Assembly: GCA_964586515.1 (NCBI GenBank)
Contig: CAZPGJ010000001.1
Location: forward strand, 158,390 to 222,389
Reading direction: 5' to 3'
From: an uncultured Dehalococcoidales bacterium
GTDB taxonomy: Bacteria > Chloroflexota > Dehalococcoidia > GIF9 > AB-539-J10
DNA length: 64,000 bases
Under the pieces are notes generated by a model. It worked only from the letters and a program-made list of their open reading frames with translations, was not told the origin of the DNA and did no database searches. This document shows, piece after piece, positions 45,636 through 64,000 of the stretch (positions are counted from its first letter, which is position 1; the number at the start of each line of letters is the position of its first letter). The position numbers were made by a program, and so were the translations under genes.

Positions 45636-45758
45636 CTCTATAAAATCCTAAACTATAAATAAATCCAAATATCAAAATCCAAATGACAAGTAAAGTCCAA
45701 ATGTCTAAATGCCAAAACCACTCCCCTTTATCATTTGAGCTTTGTCATTTGTCATTGT
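45636..45758 (+). repeat. AT-rich intergenic repeat (aaaatcctaaac; atcaaaatccaaatgacaag; tttgtcatttgtcattg)
   Basis: Shares motifs with the spacers at 45087 and 47752. Confidence 0.5.
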
Positions 45759-46964: not shown

Positions 46965-46977
46965 AGCAAATTTAACC

Positions 46978-47751: not shown

Positions 47752-47890
47752 AATCCTAAATCCTAAACAAATTCCAAATCCTAATTCCAAAATTCAAAAT
47801 CTTCTTGTTTCGGGTATTTGAGTTTTGATGAGAGGAATTAAATTTTTCCTTTCTTTTGTTTAGTATTTCGTATTTAGTGCTTAGAATTTT
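47752..47890 (+). repeat. AT-rich intergenic repeat (taatcctaaatcctaaacaaattccaaatcctaattccaaaattcaaaat...)
   Basis: The aaatcctaaacaaattcc block is identical to that at 45100. Confidence 0.5.
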
Positions 47891-48207: not shown

Positions 48208-49788
48208 TTAAGGCTTGTGGTGGTTGATTACGTTCTGCGGTATTACGAGGGGCTTCGTGCCGTTGTACGCAAAGTTCCAGCAGCCGTACTGGTCAGTCAA
48301 CGCCTTGTCGTATTCGTCTCCGAAATACATCGGCCAGACGCCGACTTTCTTCCACTGACCAGCCGTTGCATCCCACTGCCACTGCGCGCCAATGCCAGTC
48401 AAGCGGCCAGGACCATAAACCAGGTCATGAGTGGTGTGTGGTGGCATTGTCCAGTCCTTCGCGTCATACGTATAAGTAGTATTATAACTACCAAGGTCGT
48501 ACAGTGAGCCTACTTGAGCCTCTGTCAGTGCCGGTTTCCCGGCAGCCGTAGTTCCCGGCCTGGGATAATAGGTGGTCAAGCCAGTCGTGGTTACCTGAGC
48601 GTTTGCCGGGCCTTCCAGCCACTTAATAATGTCATCAGCCCGTGCATATGCAGTTCCGTTAACCGCGTTGTACCATGCCACTGCTTCGATGGCCGCTTTC
48701 AGACCAAAAAGCGCATCATAGGTAGCCGCGGTATCGAGTGGGTACTCTCCTCCAGAAGCGGTCATGAACGCAGAAAGGAAAGCTGCTGTCTTCGAGGTCT
48801 GGTTTAAGCCTTCCGCCCAGGTATCCAGTACAACCTCATAAGCACAAGCAGGGCCACCAGGGGGGGCTGCGGTAAGGTTGCCGGCACCCCAAGGGCTCTT
48901 AAGCTGGGCCATTACGTTAAAGCCTACCGACATAGCATTCGGTACATAAGATGCACGCAGTTTATCATAGAGAACGCCAGCATTCGCGGAGAATACAGGG
49001 ATGATAAACTCGGGATCTAAGCCTGCTATCGAGGTCAGCACACTCTGCATTTCCGCCGTGTTTCCCGTTGCATCCACCCAATATGGGTCGTGGACAAGAG
49101 TCACGTTTATACCCCCTAGCAGTCCCTCAATATCTACTACTTGCTCATAGGCCCAGGGCAAATTGTCAGCGACTATGGTGGCATTCAACGTACAATTAGC
49201 CGCTACTCCCATTTTCTCCCTGAGCTTTATTGCGACCGCTCCCAGTATCCTCACAAGGCTCTGGCTTGAAAAATACTCGTTGTACGGCGTGCCCTTGAAC
49301 CAGAACCGGTAGCCCGGGTAATCGTCGACTACGCTGTGCTGGAGCGCCTCGGCGGCAACACCACAGTCGATGAAAATCACCCCCTTCTCCATAGCCACAT
49401 TGCGGTAGACCTCAACGGCTTTTGTCTGTAAACCCCCGAGGATGAAGTCCACGTCATCGTCGTCTATCGCTGTCGTAAGAGCCGATACGCCAGTGAGACC
49501 AGCAGGGTCCACGGTCTCTTCACCGGTCTCTATGGGAACCAACTCCAAGATATAGGACACGCCGCCTATGTCTACCCCGCCATTGCGGTTGATTGCATCC
49601 TGTGCCAGCGTGGCACCTGTCCATTGCATCGCGCCAGCTGTGCAGTTCTGGTCGCCAGCTATACCGATATCAATTTTCCCACCTCGGAAGGCATAGAGTA
49701 CTGGCTCGAGTTTCTCTGCACTACAGCCCGGGAGTGCCAACCCTATCACCAAAAGACTGGCCATAATCAGGAAAACAATTTTTTTCAC
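48208..49788 (-). CDS. Solute-binding lipoprotein of an ABC transporter (type I periplasmic binding fold, LivJ-like); signal peptide with lipobox LPGCS
   Basis: N-terminal MKKIVFLIMASLLVIGLALPGCS, a large PBP1-like body, and no adjacent permease or ATPase genes. Confidence 0.6.
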   Translation of the reverse strand: MKKIVFLIMASLLVIGLALPGCSAEKLEPVLYAFRGGKIDIGIAGDQNCTAGAMQWTGATLAQDAINRNGGVDIGGVSYILELVPIETGEETVDPAGLTGVSALTTAIDDDDVDFILGGLQTKAVEVYRNVAMEKGVIFIDCGVAAEALQHSVVDDYPGYRFWFKGTPYNEYFSSQSLVRILGAVAIKLREKMGVAANCTLNATIVADNLPWAYEQVVDIEGLLGGINVTLVHDPYWVDATGNTAEMQSVLTSIAGLDPEFIIPVFSANAGVLYDKLRASYVPNAMSVGFNVMAQLKSPWGAGNLTAAPPGGPACAYEVVLDTWAEGLNQTSKTAAFLSAFMTASGGEYPLDTAATYDALFGLKAAIEAVAWYNAVNGTAYARADDIIKWLEGPANAQVTTTGLTTYYPRPGTTAAGKPALTEAQVGSLYDLGSYNTTYTYDAKDWTMPPHTTHDLVYGPGRLTGIGAQWQWDATAGQWKKVGVWPMYFGDEYDKALTDQYGCWNFAYNGTKPLVIPQNVINHHKP

Positions 49789-49989
49789 TGCACATCAATT
49801 TCCTTTTTAGCTTGTAGTTGCTTGATTCATTAAGCTAACCACTGGTGCTGGAAGAAACTGGTCAACAACCAGTTACTTCCAGCAACTTAATCCTTATACA
49901 CTATATCACAAAACTATCTCCTTCTTTACCTCTGGTCTCCAGATTCTTGTAGTTGCCTGATTTACCAGCCAGGCCCCGCCCGATTTTTT

Positions 49990-50066
49990 GTCATTGCGAG
50001 CGAAGCGTGGCACTTTCATTAACCCTTCCATGAGATTGCTTCGGCTGACTTCGTCAGCCTCGCAAC
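49990..50066 (+). repeat. TIR element copy (GTCATTGCGAGCGAAGCGTGGCA...GATTGCTTCGGCTGACTTCGTCAGCCTCGCAA)
   Basis: Carries the family termini plus an internal palindrome GGCTGAC-ttc-GTCAGCC. Confidence 0.65.
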
Positions 50067-50193
50067 AACAGAAGAGGTTATCAATGCAAAAACCAATTAA
50101 ATCATAACATTTAAATATTAAGATTCTATTAAATTTAGGGGGATGTGACATCTTTTTATAGCGGCTGGAGAGGAAAGAGAATCTCCACTCCCC

Positions 50194-50346
50194 CGTCATT
50201 GCGGGCCCTTTGCCTTTTGTCATTCTGAGCCGAAGGCGAAGAATCTCACTTCTTCTCAGGCATGTCCTGAGCGAAGTCGAAGGAGTAAACTCCGCGTGGC
50301 AATCCTCCGGAATTGCTTCGGCTGACTTCGTCAGCCCCGCAATGAC
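50194..50346 (+). repeat. Nested compound TIR element (outer GTCATTGCGGG...CCCGCAATGAC; inner GTCATTCTGAGCCGAAGGCGAAGAATCTCA and ...GGCAATCC...GATTGCTTCGGCTGACTTCGTCAGCC)
   Basis: Read directly. It is the second unit of a tandem pair with 49990-50066. Confidence 0.65.
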
Positions 50347-50379
50347 AGAAGGGGGGTTGTCAATGCAAAATGCAAAACT

Positions 50380-50470
50380 AAAGGTGCAAAACGACGGAGC
50401 AAAGGTTAAATGCTTTGCGTTTTGAGTTGTCATTTTGATTTTTGACCTCTAACTTTTGAATTGTAACATC
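50380..50470 (+). repeat. AT-rich repeat copy (caaaatgcaaaactaaaggtgcaaaacgacggagcaaaggt...gtcattttgatttttgacctctaacttttgaatt), homologous to 45120-45220
   Basis: About 80 bp alignable with the copy upstream of the NIL-ferredoxin gene. Confidence 0.6.
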
Positions 50471-50614: not shown

Positions 50615-51979
50615 TTATCTCTTATACTTCCATCTTGTTCCTTGAGGGGTATCTTCAAGGGTTACTCCTAAATCGGCCAATCCACTTCTAATTTTATCGG
50701 CTAGCTGCCACTGCTGGTTTTGACGCAAATCATCCCTGGTGGATGCCAGGAGACTGATAAATGCTTCAGCGTCGGGTGTGGGCTGTGTCTTTTCCTTTAA
50801 AGTAAGACCTAGGATGCCTGCTAGCTTCAGTAGGGTATACTGCGCTTCAGTTATATTTGCACCCTGTTCAGCGCCCCGGCTTATTTCCCTCGTCAATTCG
50901 AAGAGCACTGCTATTGCCTGCGCAGTATTGAAGTCATCGTCCATGGCTTCGACAAATTTCTGCTCAAAAGGTTCCGTGTTGAGTATAGCAACTCTCTCGT
51001 CTGCATTAGCTCGATTGGTCAATGCCCAACGTAGTTTTTCTGCGCCCCTCTCGTTTGCTTCCAGAGCCTCTTCACTATAGGTAAGTGGACTTCTATAATT
51101 CGAGCTAAGGATAAAAAGGCGAATAGCATCAGGGCTAAAGCGCTCTAATATGTCTCTGACATTTACTAAATTACCAGTGGACTTACTCATTTTTTGCTTA
51201 TCCTGCTGCATCAACCCACTATGTAGCCAATATCGAACAAAAGGAGTCTCCTGGGTAAAGCTCTCTGATTGAGCTATTTCATTCTCGTGATGAGGGAAGA
51301 TGAGGTCTTGCCCGCCACCATGGATATCAATAGTGGCGCCGAGGTATTTTAATGCCATGGCACTGCACTCTATGTGCCACCCTGGTCTGCCTTTGCCCCA
51401 AGGGCTATCCCAGAAGGGTTCCCCAGGCTTTGACGCCTTCCATAAGGCGAAATCTAGCGGGTATTCCTTGTTTGCTTCACAATAAGTAGCCTTCGGAATC
51501 ATCTCTGCCAGGTTTCGGTGACTCAGTTTGCCATAGTCGGGAAAATTCCTGACGCGGAAATAAACACTTCCCTCAAACTCGTAAGCGTAACCTTTAGCAA
51601 GCAGACTTTGTATAATTTCAATAACTTTTGGTATTTCTTCGGTTGCCCTGGGATAGACATCCGCTCGCTCTACGTTTAATGCATCCATATTAGCAAAGTA
51701 CTGGTCAATGTATTTATTGGCCAGTTCTGCTGGCAGCATCCCCAACTGGTTGGCATGCTCTATAATCTTATTGTCTATGTCGGTAAAGTTTTGTACGTGT
51801 TTAACTTTATAGCCTTTGAATCCTAGATAGCGTTTGATTACATCAAAGATTATATAAGTCATGGCGTGCCCGATATGGCTTTCGTCGTAAGCGGTAATCC
51901 CACAGACATACATGGTTACCACTTCGCTGCGGGGATGAAAATCTTCCTTTTGTCCGGTTAAAGTATTAAATACTTTCAT
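50615..51979 (-). CDS. cysS: Cysteine--tRNA ligase
   Basis: ORF 50615..52015. Class-I HIGH (HIGHAMT) and KMSKS motifs and a zinc-binding Cys set. The start is probably the internal Met (MKVFNTL...). Confidence 0.9.
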   Translation of the reverse strand: MKVFNTLTGQKEDFHPRSEVVTMYVCGITAYDESHIGHAMTYIIFDVIKRYLGFKGYKVKHVQNFTDIDNKIIEHANQLGMLPAELANKYIDQYFANMDALNVERADVYPRATEEIPKVIEIIQSLLAKGYAYEFEGSVYFRVRNFPDYGKLSHRNLAEMIPKATYCEANKEYPLDFALWKASKPGEPFWDSPWGKGRPGWHIECSAMALKYLGATIDIHGGGQDLIFPHHENEIAQSESFTQETPFVRYWLHSGLMQQDKQKMSKSTGNLVNVRDILERFSPDAIRLFILSSNYRSPLTYSEEALEANERGAEKLRWALTNRANADERVAILNTEPFEQKFVEAMDDDFNTAQAIAVLFELTREISRGAEQGANITEAQYTLLKLAGILGLTLKEKTQPTPDAEAFISLLASTRDDLRQNQQWQLADKIRSGLADLGVTLEDTPQGTRWKYKR

Positions 51980-52060
51980 CTCTTTTCCCCAGAGGGTGAC
52001 TGACAACCGTCTCACTCTTATTCAGCGAATCACATCTCAGGTCGGCTAAATTTTCAAAAC

Positions 52061-52089
52061 TTGACAAGCTTATCACCCCCTGATATTGT
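52061..52089 (+). promoter_or_regulatory. Putative promoter for the rrf2-cysK... sulfur cluster (-35 TTGACA 52061-52066, 17-nt spacer, extended -10 TGaTATTGT 52081-52089)
   Basis: Consensus -35 and a TG-extended -10 about 40 nt upstream of the rrf2 start. Confidence 0.4.
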
Positions 52090-52131
52090 ATACTAAGTTG
52101 ATTAATTTGGTCAACAATTGAGGAGGACTGA

Positions 52132-52575
52132 ATGAAGCTTTCTACTAAAGGCAGATATGGAGTGAGGGCACTTTTGGATTTGGCTCTTCATCAAGGTGAG
52201 GGGTTGGTTCTATTAAAGGATATCGCCCGGAGGCAAGAGGTTTCACTGCCGTATCTAGAGCATCTGATCACTCCTCTTATAGCTGCCGGCCTGGTGAAGA
52301 GCACACGGGGGGCTCGGGGTGGTGTCTTGCTACTTAAGCCGCCCTCGGAGATCAAGCTTAGTGAAGTAGTTCAACTTCTTGAGGGCTCCATTGCCCCGGT
52401 GGACTGTGTGAATGATCCTAAGGTATGCCACCGTTCTGCTTCTTGTGTTACCCGGGATATCTGGAGTGAGATGAAGAGGGCAATGAGCCAGGTTTTAGAT
52501 TCTAAGACCTTACAGGACCTGGTTGAGCGGCAAAGACAGAAGGGACAAACTGAAACAGGGATGTATTACATTTGA
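52132..52575 (+). CDS. Rrf2-family transcriptional regulator (IscR/CymR-like) with three clustered Cys (Fe-S ligands)
   Basis: wHTH N-terminus (MKLSTKGRYGVRALLDLA) and CVNDPKVCHRSASC. Confidence 0.8.
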   Translation: MKLSTKGRYGVRALLDLALHQGEGLVLLKDIARRQEVSLPYLEHLITPLIAAGLVKSTRGARGGVLLLKPPSEIKLSEVVQLLEGSIAPVDCVNDPKVCHRSASCVTRDIWSEMKRAMSQVLDSKTLQDLVERQRQKGQTETGMYYI

Positions 52576-52657
52576 GAGGCCTTTACCCGGGAAATATGTT
52601 TAAGAACGGGACAGGCATTTTGCTGATTATTGCGCTTATGATCAGGAGGAAAGCAGA

Positions 52658-53671
52658 ATGACAAAGATAAGTCAAAATGTGGAGAGGCTTCAATACAAGA
52701 CAGTTGAGATACCGAAACTAACTAGAGGAATAGCTAAGGACTCTAGCGAGTTAATCGGGAATACACCTTTGGTCAGGCTGAACCGGATAACCAAAGGGGT
52801 AAAGGCAGAGGTAGTAGCTAAGCTTGAATCCTTTAATCCCCTGGGAAGTGTAAAGGACAGAATCGGGGTATCAATGATTGTTGATGCTGAAGAGAAAGGG
52901 CTCATCAACGAAGATACGGTGATCGTCGAGCCCACCAGCGGCAACACTGGAATCGCCCTGGCTTTCGTCTGCGCCGCCAGAGGATACCGGCTCATCCTCA
53001 CCATGCCTGATACTATGTCCTTAGAGCGGAGGCAGCTTCTGTCTATTTTTGGGGCTGAGCTGGTCTTGACCCTTGGAGTGGAGGGGATGCCAGGGGCGGT
53101 GAGGAAGGCGGAACAATTGGTGGCAGAGAATACCAATTACTTTATGCCCCAACAGTTTAATAATCCGGCAAATCCGGAGATACATCGACTGACTACCGCA
53201 GAAGAAATCTGGAGGGATACCAACGGTGAAGTAGATATTCTGGTCTCTGGTGTGGGAACGGGAGGGACAATCACAGGATTAGCTGAGGTTATAAAGAAAA
53301 GGAAGCCTGAATTTGAGGCTATTGCTGTTGAGCCGACTGATTCCCCAGTTCTCTCCGGGGGCAAGCCTGGTTCTCATAAGATTCAGGGTATTGGCGCGGG
53401 ATTTATACCCAAAATTCTCAAGCTAGACTTGGTTGACGAGATTATCAGAGTTACCAATGAAGATGCCGGAATAATGGCCAGGAGATTAGCTAAGGAAGAA
53501 GGGATATTGGCTGGCATATCTTCAGGTGCAGCAACCTGGGCAGCATTGGAGGTGGCCAAAAGAACAGGAAATAAAGGCAAACTTATCGTGGTGGTTCTAC
53601 CTGACACGGGAGAGCGCTACCTGTCTACCTGGCTTTTCCAGGAACTTTACCAGGCCTCATCAGGTCCCTAA
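52658..53671 (+). CDS. cysK: Cysteine synthase (O-acetylserine sulfhydrylase) family PLP enzyme
   Basis: PLP-lysine context SVKDR, a glycine loop (GTGGT) and a ~30-aa N-terminal extension. Confidence 0.8.
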
Positions 53672-53744
53672 AAAGCGGAATGTATTACACACTGAGCTGG
53701 AGGAATTTCCCTCCAGCCCAGCCAAAAAACGAAAGGAGGAGTAA

Positions 53745-54548
53745 ATGGAGTTTTCAGAAATATCCGAAAAACAGGTTACGAAGGCGATCATATCAGAGTT
53801 CAGCAGGGAATTTGAGGATTACATCGAAACCGATGTAATCGTAGTAGGTGCTGGACCTAGCGGGCTTATTGCCTCAAAGGAACTCGCAGAGAAGGGCGTA
53901 AAAACGCTCCTTATCGAGAGCAACAACTATCTCGGTGGAGGCTTTTGGATCGGCGGCTATCTAATGAACAAGATAACACTGAGGGCTCCGGCTCAGGGGA
54001 TTCTGAATGAAATTGGAGTCCCATATAAAGAGGCGGAAGAGGGATTGTATGTGGCAAATGGACCACACGCATGCTCTAAATTAATTGCCGCAGCTTGTGA
54101 CGCCGGCGTTAAGGTATTAAGCATGACCAAGTTCGATGATGTGATGATAAGGGAGAAGCGCGTCTGTGGGGTAGTCATCAACTGGACACCTGTATCGGCA
54201 CTTCCAAGGGCGATCACCTGCGTCGACCCAATTGGTATGGAATCAAAACTCGTCATCGATGCCACGGGACATGATGCTGTGGTTGTTCATTCACTCGCGA
54301 AGCGAGGTCTGGTGAATATCAAAGGATTCAGTGGCATGTGGGTTGCAAAATCAGAGGACGTGGTCGTTGAGTATACAAAAGAGGTATACCCGGGCCTGAT
54401 TGTAGCAGGAATGGCAGTTGCCACCACATTTGGTCTTCCTAGGATGGGTCCAACTTTTGGCGCCATGCTCTTCTCAGGAAGGAGGGCTGCAAAAGCTGCC
54501 TTGGAGCTTTTATCAAAGGGACAGTCTTTAGTCGGCATTACCTCTTGA
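53745..54548 (+). CDS. Thi4-like protein (second paralog of thiazole synthase / ribose-1,5-bisphosphate-isomerase family)
   Basis: GAGPSGL dinucleotide motif and [10 protein letters not shown]...PGLIVAGM, parallel to the thi4 at 46978. Confidence 0.65.
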
Positions 54549-54599
54549 GAAGTATATCCCTACAAGAGCTGGTTAACAGGTAACAGGGAAAAACGCTTA

Positions 54600-55313
54600 A
54601 TGTTTAAGACGTTAAGAGAAGATATTCAAACGGTTTTTGCCAAAGACCCCGCGGCAAGGAGCACGTTGGAGGTCATTTTCTGCTATCCTGGCCTCCACGC
54701 CCTCTGGTTTCACCGTCTCGCCCATTTACTCTGGCGACATAAGCTCCGATTCCTAGCTCGTCTCCTGTCCCACCTCAATCGCTTCCTAACCGGCATCGAA
54801 ATTCACCCTGGAGCCAGGATCGGCAGGAGGTTCTTTATCGACCATGGGGCAGGGGTGGTCATTGGAGAGACGGCTGAGATTGGGGATGATGTCTTGCTGT
54901 ATCAGGGAGCTGTCCTGGGGGGAACAACTTTGAAGAAAGGGAAACGCCACCCTACCATTGGCAACAATGTGGTGATGGGAACCGGTGCGATAGCCCTAGG
55001 TGCTATCACGATAGGAGACAGGGCTCGGATTGGTGCTGGCTCAGTGGTAATAAAGTCAGTGCCGCCTGGGGCTACGGTGGTGGGAATTCCAGGAAGAATA
55101 GCAGAGGACCACCGAAAACCGTCCATGGATTTGGAACATGGTAACTTACCTGACCCGGTGGCGGAAGCTGTCAGGTTCGTCTTAAGAGAGCAGGACAAAC
55201 TAGAGGAACGTTTGAGAACTTTGGAGAGTGCCAGTGGAATAGCATCTCCCAAAGACGAATTACCGGAGAAGATAATGATAGAAGCGGTATTCAGCCAAGG
55301 AGGGGGAATATGA
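54600..55313 (+). CDS. cysE: Serine O-acetyltransferase (left-handed beta-helix hexapeptide acyltransferase)
   Basis: SAT N-terminal helical domain plus hexapeptide repeats ([15 protein letters not shown]...[31 protein letters not shown]). Confidence 0.8.
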
Positions 55314-56452
55314 GATTTGAAACGATAGCCATTCATGCCGGGGATAGGCCAGATGCAACAACCGGCGCTATTTCGGTACCCATCTACCAGACATCGACAT
55401 TCGTGTTTGAGGATGTGGGCAAGACAAGGGGGTGGGATTACTCCCGCACGGCAAATCCAACGAGGAAGGTTCTGGAAGATACTATCGCTCAGCTTGAGGG
55501 AGGGAAAGCTGGGTTTGCCTTCGCCACTGGGATGGCGGCTGAAACGACAGTTATGCACCTTTTGAAAACAGGCGACCACGTGATCTCGGGAGACGATGTC
55601 TACGGAGGAACCTATAGATTATTTCAGGATGTGATGCGTGCCCTTGGTCTGGAGTTCACTTTCCTGAAAATGGACAATGGAGAAAGGATCGAGGGGGCAA
55701 TAAAGCCCAATACCAGGATGTTGTGGTTAGAGACTCCCTCTAATCCACTACTCAACATCGTTGACATTGAGATGGTGGTTGATATTGCTAAGAAACACAA
55801 GTTGCTGACAGTAGCAGATAATACCTTTGCCACCCCATATTTCTTAAGACCGATTGAATACGGAGTTGACCTTGTTGTCCACTCTACCACCAAGTATCTC
55901 AACGGGCACTCTGATGTTGTAGGGGGCGCTGTGGTGACCACCACTGATGAACTAAGCCAGAAGGTGCAATTTCTACTCAACGCCATGGGAACCTGTGCCG
56001 CCCCCTTCGACTGCTGGCTGGTGCTCCGGGGGATGGAGACTCTCCCTGTGAGGATGAAGCAACATGAGGAGAATGCCATTGCCGTGGCAAATTATCTCAA
56101 GGAGCATCCCAAGGTAAAGGGGGTGCTCTATCCTGGGCTCGAGTCCCATAAGGGACACGAAATCGCCAAGAGACAGATGAAAGGATTCGGTGGGGTAGTG
56201 TCCTTTGAACTGGGAGGTGGTATTGAGGGTGTAAATACCTTTCTAAGAAAGCTCAAGGTCTTTCCTCTGGCGGAATCGCTGGGTGGTGTTGCTTCTCTTG
56301 CCGAGCATCCGGCTACCATGAGTCATGCCTCGATGCCAAAGGATTATAGAGAGAAGGTGGGGATTAGCGATGAATTGATCAGGTTATCGGTTGGTTTGGA
56401 GAATATTGACGATTTGACTGAGGATTTAGAGCAGGCGCTCGAGCGCCTGTGA
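55310..56452 (+). CDS. Cys/Met-metabolism PLP-dependent enzyme (cystathionine gamma-synthase / gamma-lyase / O-acetylhomoserine sulfhydrylase family)
   Basis: Family pattern with PLP-lysine context [11 protein letters not shown]. Confidence 0.75.
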
Positions 56453-56552
56453 GGGAGGATCTGATGAAACTGTACCAGATAGTTGTGAAAGACGTCACAC
56501 GAAGGAAAGGCATTGATCTCGTAGCTATGTATCAAGATACCCTTGAGCCTGG

Positions 56553-57791
56553 GTGGCCTTAAAGGAGGAAGATTTGTCCTATGCTATAGCCTTGCGCTGC
56601 CGGAAGTGTGGGCGAGAGTATCCGTTGGAGCCTCTCAATCTATGTGACTTTTGCTTCAGTCCGTTAGAGGTAAACTACGACTATAAGTCTATAGCTAAAG
56701 CGGTAAGTCGGGAAAAGATTCTCGAGGGGCTGCCAAGCATGTGGCGCTACAGAGACTTGCTGCCTGTAGATGGCGATGTAGTGGATATTGGCACGGGATT
56801 CACTCCTCTTGTTAAGGCTGATAACCTGGGGCAGGAACTGGGGTTGGAGAAGCTTTATATCAAAAATGACTGCCTTAACCCAACGTACTCCTTCAAGGAT
56901 CGGGTGGTCTCGGTAGCTATCACCAAGGCACGAGAATTTGGATTTGATACCGTGGCTTGTGCCTCAACAGGCAATCTGGCTGCTAGCGTGGCGGCTCATG
57001 CTGCCAAAGCAAATATAAAGTCCTATGTTTTCGTTCCCTCTGATGTGGAACCAGGTAAGCTGACAGGAATAGCAATCTATAACCCAGTTCTGGTGACAAT
57101 TAAGGGAAACTACGACGATGTCAACCGCCTCTGTAGCCAGATAGCGCAGAGATATAACTGGGGGTTCATCAACATTAATCTCCGACCCTACTATGCTGAG
57201 GGGAGCAAGACCCTGGGTTATGAAGTAGCTGAACAACTGGGGTGGCATGCCCCTGATTGTGTAGTGGCCCCCGCTGCCTCGGGGCTCCTCTTTACCAGGA
57301 TATGGAAAGGCCTGGACGAGCTTTCTATGCTGGGTTTAATTCAACCGATCAATACTCACATGTATCTTACCCAGGCTGCGGGTTGTTCTCCCATTGTCAA
57401 TGCTTTTGAGGCAGGTATTCACCATGTGCACCCAGTGAAACCAAATACCATCGCCAAGTCTATAGCTATTGGGAACCCGGCTGATGGCTATTATGCGTTG
57501 AGGGTTGCCCGGCAGTCAGGGGGCAGTGCCTGTGCTGTCACCGATGAAGAGGTGGTTGAGGGGATGAAGCTGCTGGCCGAGACTGAAGGCATTTTTGCCG
57601 AGACAGCTGGAGGTGTGGTAATAGCGGGGTTGCGGAAGCTAGTGACCTCGGGGATAATTAAGAGGAATGAGCTTACGGTGGTTTTCATTACCGGGGCAGG
57701 ACTGAAAACCCAGGAAGTGATAGCTGAGGGGGTTCATCCCCTCGTAATCCAGCCCACCTTGGAATCCTTCGAGGAAATTTTTGGTAAGTGA
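56553..57791 (+). CDS. thrC: Threonine-synthase-like PLP enzyme with N-terminal zinc-ribbon (CxxC...CxxC)
   Basis: CRKCGREY...CDFC followed by the fold-type-II PLP motif SFKDR. Specificity (Thr synthase versus a sulfhydrylase-type relative) cannot be resolved from sequence alone. Confidence 0.6.
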   Translation: MALKEEDLSYAIALRCRKCGREYPLEPLNLCDFCFSPLEVNYDYKSIAKAVSREKILEGLPSMWRYRDLLPVDGDVVDIGTGFTPLVKADNLGQELGLEKLYIKNDCLNPTYSFKDRVVSVAITKAREFGFDTVACASTGNLAASVAAHAAKANIKSYVFVPSDVEPGKLTGIAIYNPVLVTIKGNYDDVNRLCSQIAQRYNWGFININLRPYYAEGSKTLGYEVAEQLGWHAPDCVVAPAASGLLFTRIWKGLDELSMLGLIQPINTHMYLTQAAGCSPIVNAFEAGIHHVHPVKPNTIAKSIAIGNPADGYYALRVARQSGGSACAVTDEEVVEGMKLLAETEGIFAETAGGVVIAGLRKLVTSGIIKRNELTVVFITGAGLKTQEVIAEGVHPLVIQPTLESFEEIFGK

Positions 57792-57857
57792 GCTTGAGTC
57801 TTTAATGTTCCACTCGTGTTATAATTTTAACTTTAGAAAAAATATCAGGAGGACAAG

Positions 57858-58100
57858 ATGGTCAAGCGAGGAGTAAAGTTCACCTTTCCACCGGAATTGA
57901 TTAAGGAGCCCATCATTTACAATCTCGGTCAACAGTTTAAGGTAGTGACCAATATCCGACGCGCTGATGTAAATGGAGACAAGGGCTGGGTAGTTCTTGA
58001 ATTGGAGGGGGAAGGAGAAGATATCGAGCGTGGAATTGCTTGGGTGACTGGCAAAGGGGTAAGGGTTGATCCCGTTGTCGGAGATATTGTAGAGGGTTAG
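57858..58100 (+). CDS. Stand-alone NIL-domain protein (80 aa)
   Basis: …QFKVVTNIRRADVNGDKGWVVLELEGEGEDIERGIAWV… parallels the N-terminal domain of the NIL-ferredoxin at 45225. Confidence 0.5.
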   Translation: MVKRGVKFTFPPELIKEPIIYNLGQQFKVVTNIRRADVNGDKGWVVLELEGEGEDIERGIAWVTGKGVRVDPVVGDIVEG

Positions 58101-59261
58101 ATGCGAAGGATATATCTTGACCACGCTGCCACCACGCCAACACATCCCGAGGTAGTGAAGGCCATGCTGCCTTATTTTACCGATGCCTTTGGCAATCCTT
58201 CGAGCATCTATTCTTACGGGCAAGAAGCGAAGGGGGCCGTAGAAGAGGCCAGAACTAGGGTGGCGGAACTTATTGGCGCTCGGAGCGAGGAGATTATTTT
58301 TACCAGCGGGGGAACGGAGGCGGATAACTATGCCTTAGAGGGCGTTGCCTATGCTAATGAGCGTAAAGGGAATCACATCATCACCACCTCCATTGAGCAC
58401 CATGCGGTGATGGAGGTGTGCAAGTTTCTGGAGAGAAGGGGATTCAGGATAACCCGCCTGCCGGTGGATAAATATGGCCTGGTTGACCCTGATGATGTCA
58501 AGAGAGCTATTACCGATAAAACCATCCTTATCTCAGTCATGCATGCCAACAACCAGGTAGGCACGATAGAGCCTGTGGAAGAAATAGGTAAAATTGCCAG
58601 AGAGGCAGGGGTCTATTTTCACACCGATGCCGTGCAAACGGTGGGGCATATCCCGGTGAATGTGGATAAACTTAAGGTAGACTTGCTCTCCATTGCAGCG
58701 CATAAGTTCTACGGACCTAAAGGAGTGGGGGCGCTGTATGTCAGGAAAGGCACCAGGTTAGTTTCCCTTATGCATGGGGGAGAGCAGGAAAAGAGGCGCA
58801 GGGCTGGTACCGAAAATGTTCCTGCTATCGTGGGGCTTGGCAAGGCGGTGGAGCTTGCCGGGCAGGAGATGGGCAAAGAAGCAGAACGGCTGGCTTATCT
58901 TCGGGATAAGCTAATTAAAGGTCTCTTGGAGAAGATTGACCACATCCGCTTAAATGGTCATCCCACGAGAAGGCTGCCCAACAATGTCAATGTAAGCGTT
59001 GATTTTGTGGAAGGGGAATCCATGCTTTTAAATCTTGATTTAGAGGGCATCTGTGCTTCTACCGGCTCAGCCTGTAGCTCGGCAATCCTTGAACCGTCCC
59101 ATGTTCTTCTGGCGCTGGGGCTTCCCCCCGAGCAAGCTCATGGCTCGCTCAGGTTTACCTTGGGGCGAGAGAATACCGAGGAAGACGTAGAGCGAGTTTT
59201 GGATGTCCTGCCCAGAGTTGCCGCCAAGCTCAGAGCGATGTCGCCACTGTTGAGAGGATAG
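58101..59261 (+). CDS. iscS: Cysteine desulfurase (NifS/IscS family)
   Basis: PLP-lysine HKFYGPKG, active-site cysteine loop SSGSACSS. Confidence 0.85.
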   Translation: MRRIYLDHAATTPTHPEVVKAMLPYFTDAFGNPSSIYSYGQEAKGAVEEARTRVAELIGARSEEIIFTSGGTEADNYALEGVAYANERKGNHIITTSIEHHAVMEVCKFLERRGFRITRLPVDKYGLVDPDDVKRAITDKTILISVMHANNQVGTIEPVEEIGKIAREAGVYFHTDAVQTVGHIPVNVDKLKVDLLSIAAHKFYGPKGVGALYVRKGTRLVSLMHGGEQEKRRRAGTENVPAIVGLGKAVELAGQEMGKEAERLAYLRDKLIKGLLEKIDHIRLNGHPTRRLPNNVNVSVDFVEGESMLLNLDLEGICASTGSACSSAILEPSHVLLALGLPPEQAHGSLRFTLGRENTEEDVERVLDVLPRVAAKLRAMSPLLRG

Positions 59262-59322
59262 GTTAATAAGAAAAGAGAAATTTTTAGTATGAGACTTAGA
59301 CGTCCTTGAAAGGAGGCCTTCG

Positions 59323-59952
59323 ATGACATTAAAGAGGCGCGTCAGACTGGTGATTCTGCCAATTGTGGGGGTCTTAGTGATTTTGGGCATCGCGATGGTA
59401 CTGTTGAACCACTTCAACGGCCCTCCCCAACAGCAAGGACTTGATCCGACCCCGCAGATCTGGAGCGAAATTATCCCTGAAGAAGGGACAGTGACCGGTT
59501 ACGGCACCTCGCTGTCTCTTGAGAACACGCAACAGTTCATTGATTGGTACAATTCCATAGAGCTATCCACCAAGGAGCAAGCAATCCGGGATACGGCTCT
59601 GGGTTCACTGGTGGCTCCATGCTGTGATGAGTACCCGATGAGCACCTGCTGCTGTGAATGCAACCTCGCCCGCAGTGTATGGGGATTATCGGCTTATCTA
59701 ATCGCTGAGAAGGATTATGGAGTGAACCAAGTCCAGGAGGCCGCCTCTCAATGGCTCCATTTCATTCGCCCCGATTACTATGTGGGAAGGGCGCTTGAGC
59801 AGGAAGGAATTGACCCAGGACTGTGGGGATTCACTACAGAAAGCTCGTGCGCTGCAGGTCACTGTGACCGTCCTTTCTATACCGAGACGTCATCTGGTCA
59901 CCTTGGTGGTTGTGGGGGGATGGAGGAGCTCATCCAAGTTGAACTAAACTAG
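59323..59952 (+). CDS. Hypothetical membrane-anchored cysteine-rich protein (209 aa) between iscS and iscU
   Basis: N-terminal TM helix (LVILPIVGVLVILGIAMVLL); Cys cluster APCCDEYPMSTCCCECNLARS plus CAAGHCD and GGCGG. Confidence 0.5.
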   Translation: MTLKRRVRLVILPIVGVLVILGIAMVLLNHFNGPPQQQGLDPTPQIWSEIIPEEGTVTGYGTSLSLENTQQFIDWYNSIELSTKEQAIRDTALGSLVAPCCDEYPMSTCCCECNLARSVWGLSAYLIAEKDYGVNQVQEAASQWLHFIRPDYYVGRALEQEGIDPGLWGFTTESSCAAGHCDRPFYTETSSGHLGGCGGMEELIQVELN

Positions 59953-60045
59953 CGACAGGCCCCTAAGGGATAAGGAAGGCGAGGCATATATAAGTCAGAA
60001 GCACAACATTCCCGGGAGAGCCTTAGTAAGGAACAAGGGGGAAAC

Positions 60046-60447
60046 ATGCCTGATGTTTGGTCACAGTACAGTGAGAAGGTAATGGAGCACTTCAAGAATC
60101 CCCGGAATGTCGGGGAGATGGAGAACCCCGATGGTGTGGGGCATGTCGGGAATCCGGTCTGCGGCGATATTATGGAGCTTTACATTAAGGTCAACGACGG
60201 CATCATCGTTGACGCTAAATTCAAGACCTTCGGCTGTGGAGCGGCTATTGCCACCAGCTCCATGGTCACTGAAATGGTGAATGGAAAGAGCATAAAAGAG
60301 GCTCTGAAAATCTCCAACAAGGCAGTTGCTGAAGCTTTGGACGGGCTGCCGCCGGTCAAAATGCACTGCTCGGTCCTGGCTGAGGAGGCACTTAAAGCGG
60401 CCATTGAGGATTACTTGGAACACCAGAAACTGAAGAAGCAGACCTAG
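60046..60447 (+). CDS. iscU: Fe-S cluster assembly scaffold IscU/NifU
   Basis: The three scaffold cysteines (GNPVCGD, GCGAAIA, HCS) and an LPPVK motif. Confidence 0.85.
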   Translation: MPDVWSQYSEKVMEHFKNPRNVGEMENPDGVGHVGNPVCGDIMELYIKVNDGIIVDAKFKTFGCGAAIATSSMVTEMVNGKSIKEALKISNKAVAEALDGLPPVKMHCSVLAEEALKAAIEDYLEHQKLKKQT

Positions 60448-60563
60448 TACCAGAATTTCACGATAATCCCCAAGTATGTATCTCCCTTCGTTGTCCTGCC
60501 AATTTATGCATTTTGCTGGACATGTCAGCACCAACCTATTTAAGACTTTTGACTGCGGTTTAT

Positions 60564-60600
60564 ATATGAATTATAATTCATATAAATGGAGATTCATATG
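60564..60600 (+). promoter_or_regulatory. Putative ArsR operator: 20-bp perfect palindrome ATATGAATTA|TAATTCATAT (60564-60583) plus a third half-site ATTCATATG overlapping the arsR start
   Basis: Perfect inverted repeat read from the sequence, immediately upstream of and overlapping the arsR start codons (ATG 60586 and 60598). Confidence 0.5.
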
Positions 60601-60912
60601 CCAATAGAGGAAGGCCAGGCAAGGTTTCTGAGGTGCATCGGAGAGCCGACGAGACTCCAGATACTCAAGGTGCTGGCGGAGGGCGAGAGGTGCGTTGGCG
60701 AACTCGCCTATGTTTTGAGTAAGGAGCAATCTCTGATTTCACACCACCTGAGAGCCCTTAAGGAATGCAACATTGTGAAAGAGAGGCAGGAAGCTCAGAA
60801 AGTTTACTACAAGCTTACGGATGCTAGATTAGCCAGGTTAATTATTGATAGCGAAGCTCTAATGAAGGAGCTATCGCTATGCAAATGTCAGGAGGTGAAT
60901 TATGAAAGATAA
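60586..60912 (+). CDS. arsR: ArsR/SmtB-family metalloregulator
   Basis: wHTH with the metal-binding motif ERCVGELA and family helix LISHHLRALKE. Confidence 0.8.
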   Translation: MEIHMPIEEGQARFLRCIGEPTRLQILKVLAEGERCVGELAYVLSKEQSLISHHLRALKECNIVKERQEAQKVYYKLTDARLARLIIDSEALMKELSLCKCQEVNYER

Positions 60913-61660
60913 GGAAATCAAGGAAGTGGTGAAGGGGAGATATGCTCAGATAGCTAGGCAAGACCAAGAGAGCTGCTGCCCAAGTTGTTCTGGCGGGGCC
61001 AGCTCCTTGTTGCAAGCTAAGGGTACCGAGTACTTGAGAGAGGATTTGGAACATGTTCCGGAAGAGGCGATTATGGGGTTGGGATGTGGTAACCCCGCCG
61101 CCATAGCAGACCTCAAAGCGGGTGAGATAGTCCTGGATTTAGGGTCGGGAGCTGGTGTAGATGTGTTCCTGGCAGCTAATAAAGTTGGTCCGACTGGCAA
61201 GGTTATCGGGGTTGATATGACGGAGGAGATGGTAGATAAGGCAGAAGAAATCGCCAGGAATTATGGCTACCATAACGTGGAATTCCACCTAGGGGAAATT
61301 GAGAGCCTCCCAGTCGAGGATGAGTCTGTGGATGCGATTATCAGCAACTGCGTCATCAATCTCTCGCCGGATAAATCTAAGGTCTTCCAGGAAGCTTACC
61401 GAGCCTTGAAGCCCAGGGGCAGGCTCACAGTCTCTGATATTGTCTCCGAAAGAGCGCTCCCCAATGAGATAAAGACTGACTCGAACGCCTGGGCATGTTG
61501 TATCGGCGGGGCATTGGAGCAGCAGGAATACTTGGAAAAGATAAAGAAAGCTGGCTTTGAGGATGTAGAGATAGTATCAAGCCGGGAATTTTATATAGAG
61601 AACAAAGCAAACCAGACGCAAGAGAAGCTTCTGAGCATCACGGTAAAGACATATAAGTGA
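60902..61660 (+). CDS. arsM: Arsenite S-adenosylmethionine methyltransferase (ArsM/AS3MT-like)
   Basis: Conserved Cys (CCPSC, LGCG), SAM motif VLDLGSGAG, and a C-terminal WACCIGG. Confidence 0.7.
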   Translation: MKDKEIKEVVKGRYAQIARQDQESCCPSCSGGASSLLQAKGTEYLREDLEHVPEEAIMGLGCGNPAAIADLKAGEIVLDLGSGAGVDVFLAANKVGPTGKVIGVDMTEEMVDKAEEIARNYGYHNVEFHLGEIESLPVEDESVDAIISNCVINLSPDKSKVFQEAYRALKPRGRLTVSDIVSERALPNEIKTDSNAWACCIGGALEQQEYLEKIKKAGFEDVEIVSSREFYIENKANQTQEKLLSITVKTYK

Positions 61661-61714
61661 GAAACCAGGCGGCAATATAGCCAGCCACGGCTTCAATCTG
61701 TCGGAGGTGGATAG

Positions 61715-62713
61715 TTGGTAATCCAGTATCTCATAGTATTCAAGGATTATCTCATTGAGATATTGCCCTTCCTGGCAATAGGGTTCCTACTGAGTGGCTT
61801 AATTCACGAATTTGTCCCTTCAAACTGGGTGGAGAGACGCCTCGGTGGACGAGGTTTGAAGCCAATCCTTTACTCCACCCTTATCGGGACAATCCTTCCC
61901 ATCTGCTGTTTCGGCTCCCTCCCGGTGGCGGTGAGCCTGCACCAGAAAGGGGCAAGGTTAGGACCAGTTCTAGCTTTCCTGGTCGCAACGCCAGCTACCT
62001 CCATAACCGCCCTTCTCGTCACCTATGGTCTCCTGGGATTAAAGTTCACCATATTCATCTTCTTTGCCGTGATAGCCATGGGTTTAGTCATGGGGCTGGT
62101 AGGAAATCTCATCAAGGTCAGACCTAAGGTTTTTACTCTTCAAGAGCAACAGGCTCTCGACCCGGTTTGTGGGATGAGTGTCGAGGTAGGGAAAGCGGCT
62201 AAGGCAGAATGTGGCGGAGAGACGTATTACTTTTGCTGTTCCCACTGCCAGCAGGCCTTTGAGGATAATCCAAAGGAGTATATAGGAGCTTATTCTCGGA
62301 ATGTTGCTCACAGAGTAAAGCATGTGTTCAGATATGCCTTTGTGGATATGGTCAAGGATATCGGGCCGGAGTTGCTTCTGGGTCTGGCTCTGGCGGCTTT
62401 GGTAGCAGCGGTGGTTCCGGTGGGGAAGTTCGTTGGTGCTTATCTCAGTGGGGGACTGGGGTATCTTTTCAGCCTTGGCTTTGGCTTAATCATGTATATC
62501 TGCTCCACAGCCAGCGTTCCCCTGGTCCACGCCTTCGTGTCGCAGGGAATGAATATCGGCGCCGGAATGGTGCTCCTGTTGGTGGGCCCCATTACCAGTT
62601 GGGGCACTATCCTGGTCCTGAGAAAGGAATTCAGTGGCAGGACCCTGGCTATTTATCTGGCGGTCGTCAGCGTAATGTCTCTGGCTCTGGGCTACTGCTT
62701 CTCGCTGATATAG
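61715..62713 (+). CDS. Permease of the DUF318/ArsP-like family with an inserted YHS/TRASH-type metal-binding domain
   Basis: Multi-TM protein with LPICCFGS and a cytosolic loop CGMSVEVGKAAKAECGGETYYFCCSHCQQAFEDNP (the YHS pattern). Downstream of arsR-arsM. Confidence 0.55.
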   Translation: MVIQYLIVFKDYLIEILPFLAIGFLLSGLIHEFVPSNWVERRLGGRGLKPILYSTLIGTILPICCFGSLPVAVSLHQKGARLGPVLAFLVATPATSITALLVTYGLLGLKFTIFIFFAVIAMGLVMGLVGNLIKVRPKVFTLQEQQALDPVCGMSVEVGKAAKAECGGETYYFCCSHCQQAFEDNPKEYIGAYSRNVAHRVKHVFRYAFVDMVKDIGPELLLGLALAALVAAVVPVGKFVGAYLSGGLGYLFSLGFGLIMYICSTASVPLVHAFVSQGMNIGAGMVLLLVGPITSWGTILVLRKEFSGRTLAIYLAVVSVMSLALGYCFSLI

Positions 62714-62829
62714 TGGTGTGGGGTGGCAGGAAAGGAAGGCCATCTGGTAATTGTGTATAATAAGGACATGTAACTGAACTGCGGGTGGGGCTAACGAGAA
62801 CCTCATATGCCAGAGGATAACGTAAAGGG

Positions 62830-63591
62830 TTGAAAGATAAGGGCAGGCACATGTTAACGAAGGACGATTTAACCAGATACGAACGCCAGATTTTGTATAC
62901 AAGCTTTGGTGAGAACGGTCAAAAGAGACTTAAACAGTCCCACGTAGTGGTAGCCGGACTCGGTGGACTGGGATGCTCTGCTTCTCTATATCTGACGTGT
63001 GCCGGCGTAGGGCATATCACCTTAATAGACTGTGACCGTGTAGAACTCTCTAATTTAAACCGGCAGATTCTTCATTATGAGGAGGATATTGGAGAGGGAA
63101 AGCCCTTGTCCGCAGCACAGAAGCTGGCTAAATTAAATTCTTCAATAAAGGTTACTCCTGTTTTCAAGAAGATTACTGAACGTAATGCCAGAGAAATTAT
63201 CAAAGGAGCAAATCTGGTAATAGACGGGATGGATAATTTCAAGACCAGATTTATTCTTAACAAGGCGTGTGTTGCCGGAGGAATACCCTTCATCCACGGG
63301 GGTGTCCACGGCCTCTTTGGCGAGGTTACTACTATACTCCCGAGGAGGACGCCCTGCCTTGCCTGCATTTTTCCGGAAGTTCCCCAGAGAAGAATTACGT
63401 TTCCTGTTTTTGGTGTGACGCCGGCCTTGATTGCTATCTTACAAGTGACAGAAGCAATTAAGCTGCTGGCCGGCTTCGGGTCTTTGCTAACAGGGAAGAT
63501 GTTATATTTCAATGGTGACACAATGGATTTCACATTCCGTAACCTCGTAAGAAACCCAAATTGCAAGGTCTGCGGGACGAAGGAGTTTTAA
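62830..63591 (+). CDS. ThiF/MoeB/HesA-family E1-like adenylyltransferase
   Basis: Glycine-rich GLGGLGC nucleotide-binding motif, a CxxC pair (CLAC...CKVC) and the family LSNLNRQ motif. Confidence 0.8.
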   Translation: MKDKGRHMLTKDDLTRYERQILYTSFGENGQKRLKQSHVVVAGLGGLGCSASLYLTCAGVGHITLIDCDRVELSNLNRQILHYEEDIGEGKPLSAAQKLAKLNSSIKVTPVFKKITERNAREIIKGANLVIDGMDNFKTRFILNKACVAGGIPFIHGGVHGLFGEVTTILPRRTPCLACIFPEVPQRRITFPVFGVTPALIAILQVTEAIKLLAGFGSLLTGKMLYFNGDTMDFTFRNLVRNPNCKVCGTKEF

Positions 63592-63866
63592 AAATTAGCA
63601 TCACGGTAAGGCTTCATCCGATTTTACAACACCTTGCTGGAGGGCAAGAAGTGGTTGCAGTGACCGGTCATACCACTGGTGAATGCCTTGAGGATTTGGA
63701 AAGCCGTTTCCCCGGTATTAAACAACTGATTCGTGATAAACGAGGGCAGCTACGTCGCTATTGTGAAATTCTTGTTAACTCCAAGTCCACCTATCCTAAT
63801 GAACTAACTACCCCGGTGAAAGATGGAGACCACATTGACATTGAGGTTTTTGTCACTGGGGGATAA
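63561..63866 (+). CDS. ThiS/MoaD-like ubiquitin-fold sulfur-carrier protein ending in Gly-Gly
   Basis: About 90-100 aa with C-terminal ...VFVTGG. Start uncertain (the ATG at 63561 overlaps the thiF-like 3' end). Confidence 0.5.
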   Translation: MQGLRDEGVLKISITVRLHPILQHLAGGQEVVAVTGHTTGECLEDLESRFPGIKQLIRDKRGQLRRYCEILVNSKSTYPNELTTPVKDGDHIDIEVFVTGG

Positions 63867-63867
63867 T

Positions 63868-64000
63868 GACAAGGCAAGACAGTGACTCCATGGCTAAAAT
63901 AATTGCCGTTTGTAAGAGCGAAGAGAAGGGTACCAGAAAGAAGGCTGTAGCCGAAGGCATTCTTAAGGAAGATTATGGCCTGGTCGGCGATGCCCACGCC
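63868..64000 (+). CDS. Partial gene (5' end only): MOSC-domain-like protein
   Basis: Open frame to the window edge: KIIAVCKSEEKGTRKKAVAEGILKEDYGLVGDAHA resembles the MOSC/YiiM N-terminal pattern. Confidence 0.35.

Follow-up and report, generated by a model that had tools for sequence, protein, structure and literature searches.

A mosaic sulfur-metabolism island with a putative MetM-type enzyme in an uncultured Dehalococcoidales bacterium

We analysed a stretch of 64,000 nucleotides from an uncultured Dehalococcoidales bacterium (Chloroflexota; contig CAZPGJ010000001.1, positions 158,390 to 222,389 of the forward strand), hereafter the window. Based on the list of open reading frames (ORFs) and on Pfam and NCBIfam, 16 ORFs, all on the + strand, form an unbroken run from 52.1 to 64.0 kb. 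A previous reading made from the letters alone (the sequence-only reading) had described this run as a co-directional sulfur cluster, in which an E1-like enzyme and a Gly-Gly carrier might supply thiocarboxylate sulfur for the synthesis of cysteine and homocysteine; the analysis finds each of the 16 genes where that reading placed it, or close by. The best explanation of the region as a whole, with a probability of about 0.6, is a mosaic sulfur-metabolism island of at least four units which includes a MetM-type enzyme: the product of the ThrC-like gene (56553-57791) would belong to the MetM family of homocysteine synthases described in 2024, and would not be a threonine synthase. The MetM family itself is known since that year; what remains new here is a carrier-less, Rrf2-linked variant of it and its recurrent partner, a small NIL protein.

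As far as the published description goes, MetM is a ThrC homologue which converts O-phosphohomoserine to homocysteine with sulfur from the thiocarboxylate of the carrier MetO, and in this is aided by Mec and MoeZ (Hasebe et al. 2024, Appl Environ Microbiol 90:e01247-24); in Streptomyces albulus, metM is adjacent to metO and has an S-adenosylmethionine (SAM) riboswitch upstream, and in the literature the enzyme is called ‘often misannotated’ as threonine synthase. We assign the window gene to this family because of the split of its clade from ThrC, the residues specific to the clade, the Gly-Gly carriers encoded nearby and the SAM riboswitches at orthologous loci. The alignment and the tree comprised the window protein, 80 genomic homologues, four crystallised ThrC proteins and the second copies of L046 and L076 (L numbers denote the loci and contigs of relatives), two genomes in which both enzyme types are co-resident. 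The nearest solved relatives of the window protein are true threonine synthases (2zsj, 6cgq, 2d1f and 1uim), at just 189-215 bits, and its closest genomic relative is found in a Dehalococcoidia metagenome-assembled genome (87% identity). The window protein shares 36-40% identity with the ThrC group, whose members are 56-65% identical among themselves, vs 54-87% with its own clade. By neighbour joining, the clade is split from the four crystallised ThrC proteins and the two co-resident second copies with a bootstrap of 100/100. Firm clustering with bona fide threonine synthases, which the sequence-only reading had named as the result that would tell against a sulfur-incorporating paralogue, is not found in the tree.

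Thirty positions are conserved in each group yet different between ThrC and the ThrC-like clade. The clade replacements (T. thermophilus numbering) include T88 to L, S155 to N, N157 to R, R160 to Y, G187-N188-A189 to A-S-G, A240 to S and W249 to G; the ThrC-invariant residues T88, S155, N157, R160, G187-N188-A189 and W249 are all replaced, identically in 73-81 of the 81 clade members. We take T88, S155 and R160 to be the residues which, in the T. thermophilus structures, bind the phosphate of substrate or product by which the addition of water is directed, and their replacement would be consistent with an enzyme that has gone from the beta-addition of water to gamma-replacement. The zinc ribbon noticed earlier is confirmed as CxxC...CxxC at residues 16-34: the four N-terminal cysteines (C16, C19, C31 and C34) are invariant in 81/81 clade members and lacking in ThrC. 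Both the catalytic core and the ribbon are kept in the window enzyme.

Looking at the neighbours, carriers and NIL genes were counted within 3 kb of the ThrC-like gene at the 75 loci which have enough downstream sequence. Gly-Gly carriers are found at 54 of them (46 together with NIL and 8 with the carrier alone); a further 10 loci have NIL only and 11 have neither. The carrier of the relatives is a CysO-like protein of 91 amino acids (...RRFVNVYVNGEDVRF...SIVPAVAGG). A SAM riboswitch is located 60-250 nucleotides upstream, on the same strand, at 12 of the 24 loci scanned with Rfam, and the loci which have it come from Actinomycetota, Omnitrophota, Anaerolineae and Dehalococcoidia. The window's own gene stands in an Rrf2-headed unit without such an element, and the Rfam scan of the window shows no riboswitch in the region. 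The suggestion that the ThrC-like enzyme is a sulfur-incorporating paralogue is thus upheld by the tree, the carriers and the riboswitches. Based on the same riboswitches and carrier neighbours and on the clade-specific residues, the whole zinc-ribbon clade, which spans Chloroflexota, Nitrospirota, Actinomycetota and Omnitrophota, would be of the methionine pathway.

The likeness to the S. albulus system rests on published descriptions of MetM/MetO rather than on an alignment to the MetM sequence. As far as these descriptions reach, the two share a ThrC-homologous enzyme dependent on pyridoxal phosphate (PLP) which databases call threonine synthase, the adjacency of clade members to a CysO-like Gly-Gly carrier, and the position of actinobacterial and other clade members behind a SAM riboswitch (L061, L069 and L077). 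The window differs from what is described in that an adjoining MetO-type carrier, a Mec/JAMM protease and a riboswitch are all lacking, and in that its gene belongs to an Rrf2-headed cys operon and is followed by the small NIL gene and nifS.

Concerning the unit structure, the sequence-only reading had derived the whole run from a single promoter region, as one operon controlled by Rrf2. This is not supported by the analysis: the region is best read as a patchwork of at least four sulfur-related transcription units, not one operon, because promoter- and terminator-like sites and module-sized indels between close relatives set them apart. About four units can be delimited, namely Rrf2 to the ThrC-like gene, NIL-nifS-(membrane ORF)-nifU, arsR-arsM-permease, and thiF-carrier-MOSC-fdhD. 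A promoter-like site (TTGACA-17-TATTGT with TG; 52061-52089), which is a consensus match only, precedes Rrf2, and a GTTGA-N9-TCAAC inverted repeat, read from the sequence, lies 3' of it. The ThrC-like gene has a terminator-like hairpin with a T-run at its 3' end (57757-57784), and an extended -10 element, TGTTATAAT (TGnTATAAT; 57817-57825), which is conserved in L163, is found 33 nucleotides before NIL. The gap between nifU and arsR contains a site with an 11/12 sigma-70 match (TTGACT-17-TATAAT; 60549-60577). These promoter calls are consensus matches whose total count does not exceed the shuffled expectation, and the indels are the stronger argument for separate units.

Two long contigs of close relatives, L162 and L163, follow the window collinearly from the methylmalonyl-CoA mutase genes as far as arsM, with a nucleotide identity of 85-94%. 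There, NIL-nifS-nifU comes directly after cysS, and the block from Rrf2 to the ThrC-like gene is absent at this site. Window positions 52059-57789, which run from Rrf2 through the stop codon of the ThrC-like gene, form a clean indel of 5.73 kb relative to L163 (9929-9934), where the promoter element of NIL is kept despite the missing upstream module. The junctions of this indel have an AGCTT-like microhomology in common. The Cys-rich membrane ORF represents a second indel, absent from L002 and L163. Across 80 metagenome contigs (E1 77-93% identical), the ars module, which in some relatives lies between nifU and thiF and in others does not, and the MOSC-fdhD pair are each variably present. NIL-nifS-nifU occurs without the Rrf2-to-MetM module in some relatives. 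The window's subgroup (L002-L010 and L017, 71-87% identical) has the order Rrf2-cysK-(thi4)-cysE-cystathionine gamma-synthase family gene-ThrC-like-NIL, with no carrier adjoining NIL. Within the same island, relatives also encode a second nifS-nifU pair along with TusA and DsrE-family proteins (L004 12195-12947; L162 14283-14915), a further sign of a hot spot of sulfur trafficking in general.

The first unit begins with the Rrf2-family regulator (52132-52575; Pfam Rrf2 1e-40). Its translation contains three cysteines, C92-x6-C99-x5-C105, which bear out the Fe-S-ligand-type cysteines reported earlier, and its NCBIfam scores (CymR 138 bits and IscR 118 bits, both under cutoff) place it between the CymR-like and IscR-like regulators. 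It is followed by CysK, the O-acetylserine sulfhydrylase (52658-53671; TIGR01139 472 bits vs a cutoff of 351), a Thi4-family paralogue (53745-54548; TIGR00292 252 bits vs 148) and CysE, the serine O-acetyltransferase (54600-55313; TIGR01172 244 bits vs 211). The next gene (55310-56452) encodes a Cys_Met_Meta_PP enzyme of the cystathionine gamma-synthase/gamma-lyase family (Pfam 1e-159), which scores under every NCBIfam equivalog cutoff, so that the assignment is at family level only; within the window's subgroup it is always found 5' of the ThrC-like gene. The second unit comprises the stand-alone NIL-domain protein of 80 amino acids (57858-58100; Pfam NIL 1.5e-13), a cysteine desulfurase (58101-59261; TIGR03402 608 bits vs 531), a Cys-rich membrane ORF (59323-59952) and an Fe-S scaffold (60046-60447; TIGR03419 214 bits vs 188). 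The desulfurase and scaffold had previously been named iscS and iscU; both are present, but by these models they are NifS/NifU-type, the scaffold being of the NifU/IscU type. The Cys-rich ORF, located between them, has 209 amino acids, no Pfam or NCBIfam match, one N-terminal membrane helix and dense cysteine motifs (CCDEYPMSTCCCEC, CAAGHC and GGCGG). The third unit is the variable ars module (60586-62713), which consists of ArsR (60586-60912) as its first gene, an ArsM-like methyltransferase (60902-61660) and an ArsP_1+YHS permease (61715-62713).

Concerning cysteine synthesis, the single CysK of the window passes the cysK equivalog model and lies in one run with CysE. Its best solved match is CysK1 of M. 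tuberculosis (2q3b, 457 bits), and CysM is outside the best 60. No CysM paralogue is found in the window; the second CysK/M paralogue of relatives scores about 200 bits. The sequence-only reading had also proposed looking for a JAMM/Mec+ gene nearby, and a motif search of the 64-kb window found no ORF with the JAMM motif HxHx(6-8)SxxD, a protease gene which lies beside the E1 or the second CysK paralogue in at least 15 relatives. Thiocarboxylate-dependent cysteine synthesis is thus unsupported in the window, because its CysK is canonical and encoded with CysE and there is no CysM paralogue, and CysK and CysE are predicted to carry out ordinary sulfide-dependent cysteine synthesis. Compared with the CysO-CysM-Mec-MoeZ system of M. 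tuberculosis, the window has a Gly-Gly carrier with CysO as its nearest solved relative, but the carrier adjoins no PLP enzyme and the only candidate synthase is of the CysK1 type. Related Chloroflexota seem to have the full set: many relatives contain an apparent CysO-type module of Rrf2, CysK, a carrier-E1 fusion, a carrier ending in ILPALAGG, a second CysK/M and JAMM.

The fusions place a SAMP1/MoaD-like carrier domain (...AIAGG) at the N-terminus of E1 (L022 14656-15765; L012 11713-12897; L014 20828-21214), and beside them lie a JAMM gene, a second CysK/M paralogue and a free carrier; such a fusion would need proteolytic release of the carrier. The ‘ThiF’ proteins of 350-390 amino acids found in relatives were also considered as MoeZ with a rhodanese domain. 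This was rejected, since NCBIfam identifies some of them as fusions of a carrier domain and E1 and none contains rhodanese; the E1 proteins of L006 and L009 have a different C-terminal extension, again without rhodanese. As to the partners of MetM, no MetO-type carrier adjoins the ThrC-like gene of the window, where NIL and then nifS come next. The sole ThiS-family ORF of the 64 kb is located 5.8 kb downstream of it, in another unit. In place of a MoeZ-type activating enzyme, the window has an E1 that is short, rhodanese-less and not adjacent to the ThrC-like gene.

This E1-like adenylyltransferase (MoeB/ThiF/UbaA-like; 62851-63591, 246 amino acids from the likely ATG; Pfam ThiF 1e-71) opens the fourth unit. 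It contains C-terminal CxxC pairs, scores under the cutoffs of all NCBIfam equivalogs, and has E. coli MoeB as its nearest solved relative (176 bits, vs 147 for ThiF). The ThiS/MoaD-family carrier (63561-63866; Pfam ThiS 7e-8) starts at TTG 63561 or ATT 63594 and ends in VTGG. Among solved structures it is nearest to CysO of M. tuberculosis (3dwg_C, E 8.8e-11, over its full length) and next to a CysO-like protein (4n6e_B), and in the same comparison canonical MoaD and ThiS chains gave no match. The label ‘CysO-like’ given to it earlier is therefore fair at the sequence level, and its fold would be that of CysO, as read from the full-length match. It scores 37 bits against moaD_arch and SAMP1, under the cutoffs which the carriers of relatives pass, and 30-63 bits against the MetO-/CysO-type carriers of relatives. 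Its homologues form just 203 clusters, with identities of 74-89% throughout and the automatic name MoaD, and it is best regarded as a divergent form which, like the E1, is specific to the lineage.

The last 135 bases of the window (63866-64000) encode the first 44 codons of a MOSC-domain gene. L001, a contig whose sequence is that of the window, runs on beyond the window end and encodes the complete MOSC protein of 155 amino acids (which scores 204 bits against the MOSC half of NF011069, a MoaC/MOSC fusion model) and then FdhD (223 vs an equivalog cutoff of 141). The block ThiF-carrier-(MOSC-FdhD)-NadA-(CutA) is constant in relatives, while the preceding gene varies (nifU, arsM, the permease or an MtrA-like gene), and the ThiF-carrier block also occurs in contigs without the Rrf2-to-MetM module nearby. 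The dedicated link between the E1/Gly-Gly pair and the PLP enzymes which the sequence-only reading had drawn is not supported, because a block independent of the MetM module argues against a dedicated MetM accessory. That reading had itself counted molybdopterin- or thiamine-pathway genes adjacent beyond the window as evidence against it, and genes of the molybdenum cofactor (Moco) type, MOSC and FdhD, are indeed found there. Because these two adjoin the E1/carrier pair, the fourth unit is linked, with moderate and not firm confidence, to the maturation of the molybdopterin/formate-dehydrogenase cofactor, or else would provide a general-purpose carrier. Compared with MoeB/MoaD and the archaeal UbaA/SAMP1, the shared traits are the rhodanese-less E1 close to E. 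coli MoeB, the TGG end of the carrier, and the MOSC of the MoaC-fused type with the FdhD sulfurtransferase directly after the carrier; the differences are that no MoaE was found near the window carrier (by an approximate query, hence a weak test) and that the pair falls under all NCBIfam equivalog cutoffs, with a lineage-specific carrier.

In the scheme which we propose, an Fe-S-type Rrf2 heads the first unit (52132-57791), with CysK and CysE, a Thi4 dependent on sulfide, a PLP enzyme of the transsulfuration family and the MetM-family enzyme, which would convert O-phosphohomoserine to homocysteine by gamma-replacement. The MetO carrier gene is missing in this sub-lineage, and the sulfur would come from free sulfide, or would be mobilised by the NifS of the second unit with the help of the adjacent NIL protein. 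The third unit would be a variable ars-like insert, and the carrier of the fourth would most likely provide thiocarboxylate sulfur for molybdopterin/formate-dehydrogenase cofactor maturation and may secondarily donate to MetM. Since the carrier gene is missing, sulfide or NifS-derived sulfur would be the most likely donor, to which we give a little short of even odds, and a carrier would be a somewhat less probable one. The leaning to sulfide is also based on the use of free sulfide by CysK and Thi4, the loss of the dedicated carrier gene, the lack of a JAMM protease and a CysM paralogue in the window, and the independence of the carrier block from MetM; both Thi4 paralogues of the window lack the active-site cysteine and are of the sulfide-dependent type (motif DATGHDA in the copy of the first unit). 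The variant described here, a MetM homologue without a dedicated carrier gene which shares an island with the DUF39 route to homocysteine and with canonical CysK/CysE, bears on the choice of strict anaerobes between free sulfide and protein-bound sulfur.

Several points weigh against this explanation. The characterised MetM, as described, uses a protein thiocarboxylate, and the role of the window enzyme is predicted from its sequence. Fixed differences between it and its MetO-linked relatives are found at just 8 positions, so that the sequence gives no clear sign that the dependence on a carrier has been lost. The E1 and the Gly-Gly carrier, with its CysO match, lie about 5 kb downstream on the same strand, and in L006 and L009 the MetM module has E1 genes of other types next to it. 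Given that the DUF39 homocysteine route is already present in the window, it is not obvious why MetM would be needed. Concerning the fourth unit, MoaE was not found in the window or in 168 loci, by a query with E. coli MoaE that is approximate and a weak test; the Rfam scan of the window shows no Moco riboswitch; and the adjacency of MOSC and FdhD, the sole basis of the molybdopterin role, is itself variable among relatives.

The chief alternative, which is that of the sequence-only reading, is a complete but rearranged MetM/MetO-type pathway, in which E1 adenylates the Gly-Gly carrier, NifS gives the sulfur and the resulting thiocarboxylate feeds MetM. It agrees with the thiocarboxylate dependence of the MetM family as described, with the carriers at 54 of the 75 related loci, with CysO and a CysO-like protein as the nearest solved relatives of the window carrier, and with the conserved catalytic core and Zn ribbon. 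Also, a module of Nitrospira defluvii consists of a ThrC-like gene, ThiS, NIL and a short rhodanese-less E1 (273 amino acids), so that the window holds one of each component type. However, a variable insert precedes the carrier and E1, which make up a unit of their own, and the same block is found in close relatives without MetM, followed by MOSC-FdhD-NadA. The carrier is distant from the MetO-/CysO-type carriers in score and falls under the moaD_arch and SAMP1 cutoffs which those pass, its tail is VFVTGG and not VPAVAGG, and the motif search of the window found no JAMM gene. We therefore consider this pathway possible, at clearly lower odds than the mosaic island.

Far less probable is that the ThrC-like gene is the organism's threonine synthase in an incidental sulfur-operon setting. 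The NCBI curated models would label it so (TIGR00260 301 vs 167; PRK08197 323 vs 303), no other thrC is found in the 64-kb window, the DUF39 route could already cover homocysteine, and threonine synthase has been reported as encoded by Dehalococcoides. PRK08197, however, evidently covers this zinc-ribbon clade, and such a role is hard to reconcile with the 100/100 split from solved ThrC and co-resident second copies, the replacement of ThrC-invariant residues throughout the 81-member clade, the SAM riboswitches and Gly-Gly carriers at orthologous loci, and the location of the gene within a block that is absent at this site in close relatives. Least likely of all is that the E1/carrier pair represents ThiF/ThiS for the synthesis of the thiamine thiazole, to which the Pfam ThiS and ThiF matches, the two Thi4 paralogues in the neighbourhood and a Thi4 gene 1-2 kb downstream of the carrier in many relatives would point. 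Both Thi4 copies are of the sulfide-dependent type, and Thi4-type synthases are not known to use ThiS; in addition, E1 is nearer to MoeB than to ThiF among solved structures, the carrier has no match to solved ThiS chains, and neither thiG nor thiH was seen in the window, although no search was aimed at them.

Returning to the mosaic island, the small NIL protein is a recurrent partner of its MetM-type enzyme, lying alongside the MetM-like gene at 56 of the 75 loci and also within riboswitch-controlled operons. It is found between the carrier and the E1 of ThrC-like modules in 2/2 Nitrospirota look-ups which started from NIL. The copies examined include those of L168 (1644-1883) and L169 (6001-6270), and NIL recurs with MetM-like genes across phyla. 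In the window lineage the NIL stop abuts the nifS start (58100/58101), and NIL stays with nifS-nifU where the MetM module is absent. The protein has no cysteine; a C-terminal GD[IV][VI]EG is conserved, and the motifs FTF, EP, TNIR-AD, GWV-LEL and GVRVD are seen over 58 diverse copies. Its homologues form 4901 clusters, which are named only ‘hypothetical’, ‘NIL domain’ or similar. Among solved structures its sole relative is the C2 domain of MetN, which binds methionine (3dhx, E 0.04), and an AlphaFold2 model built from 25 near-identical homologues is unusable (mean pLDDT 46.6). In the searchable literature no link of NIL to MetM or to a sulfur carrier was found, and nothing relevant on a SAM riboswitch together with threonine synthase and MoaD.

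That NIL replaces control by a SAM riboswitch was also considered. The first 10 loci were perfectly anti-correlated, and the idea was refuted by L015, L022, L057 and L080, which have riboswitch, NIL and carrier together. As a tentative and rather unlikely suggestion, NIL might, as an adaptor, couple the synthase to its source of sulfur (NifS persulfide or E1/carrier), or might act as a methionine/homocysteine-sensing subunit, with NIL and NifS having replaced MetO here in a carrier-free O-phosphohomoserine route. The window protein belongs to the same Pfam family as the C2/NIL domain of MetN in the E. coli MetNI importer, but is stand-alone and encoded in homocysteine-synthesis/sulfur-transfer operons without a transporter partner. 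The NIL domain is thus common to the MetN transporter and to two homocysteine systems that are not homologous, which makes the small protein a testable lead.

The second of these systems lies outside the co-directional run. The gene run of the sulfur cluster stands as first described, but its extent was drawn too narrowly, since related genes go beyond 52061-64000 and are found on the - strand at 43259-47790. From its upstream end, this DUF39 cluster comprises the second Thi4 paralogue (46978-47790), HcyBio/DUF39 (45759-46964; PF01837 508 bits), a NIL protein with 2x[4Fe-4S] (45225-45635; NIL+Fer4), a COG2122-like protein (44349-45086; NF003323 310 vs 271) and, at its downstream end, a PyrD-like protein (43259-44203). 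The three proteins DUF39, NIL-ferredoxin and COG2122, all encoded together at 44349-46964, 4 kb upstream of the Rrf2 run, form a route from aspartate semialdehyde to homocysteine which is found in methanogens and Desulfovibrio and has been proposed for Dehalococcoides (Price 2018, PMC5764234). The route is complete here and shares the NIL domain with the small protein beside MetM; it differs from the published pathway in the Thi4 paralogue joined into the operon, and from MetM in being a separate, non-homologous route. The organism would thus probably have two homocysteine routes side by side. The DUF39 cluster is located directly downstream of the carrier block in many relatives, and Thi4 and HcyBio are also neighbours in some 40 contigs from metagenomes.

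Between the DUF39 cluster and the Rrf2 unit, and divergent from the latter, lies the cysteinyl-tRNA synthetase gene cysS (50615-52015, - strand; family match). Two further ORFs on the - strand (48208-50433) sit between the DUF39 cluster and cysS and are kept in L163; one, of 526 amino acids, has a sub-threshold match to periplasmic binding proteins (30.4 vs 31.7 bits), and the other, of 175 amino acids, has no family. On the other side of the DUF39 cluster, positions 40518-43270 encode the large subunit of methylmalonyl-CoA mutase, a glyoxalase-fold (epimerase-like) protein and a B12-binding subunit. In positions 1-38000, none of thrC, hom, thrB, metE/H or the moa genes was noticed in a by-eye reading of ORF N-termini made without family models; the same reading suggested housekeeping genes, namely priA, mraZ/rsmH, ftsA/ftsZ, pyrR/B/C, carA/B and hisB/C/D/G. 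The sole Rfam match in the window is a DUF3800-VII sRNA (23670-23756, - strand; 48.5 bits vs a gathering threshold of 36.2).

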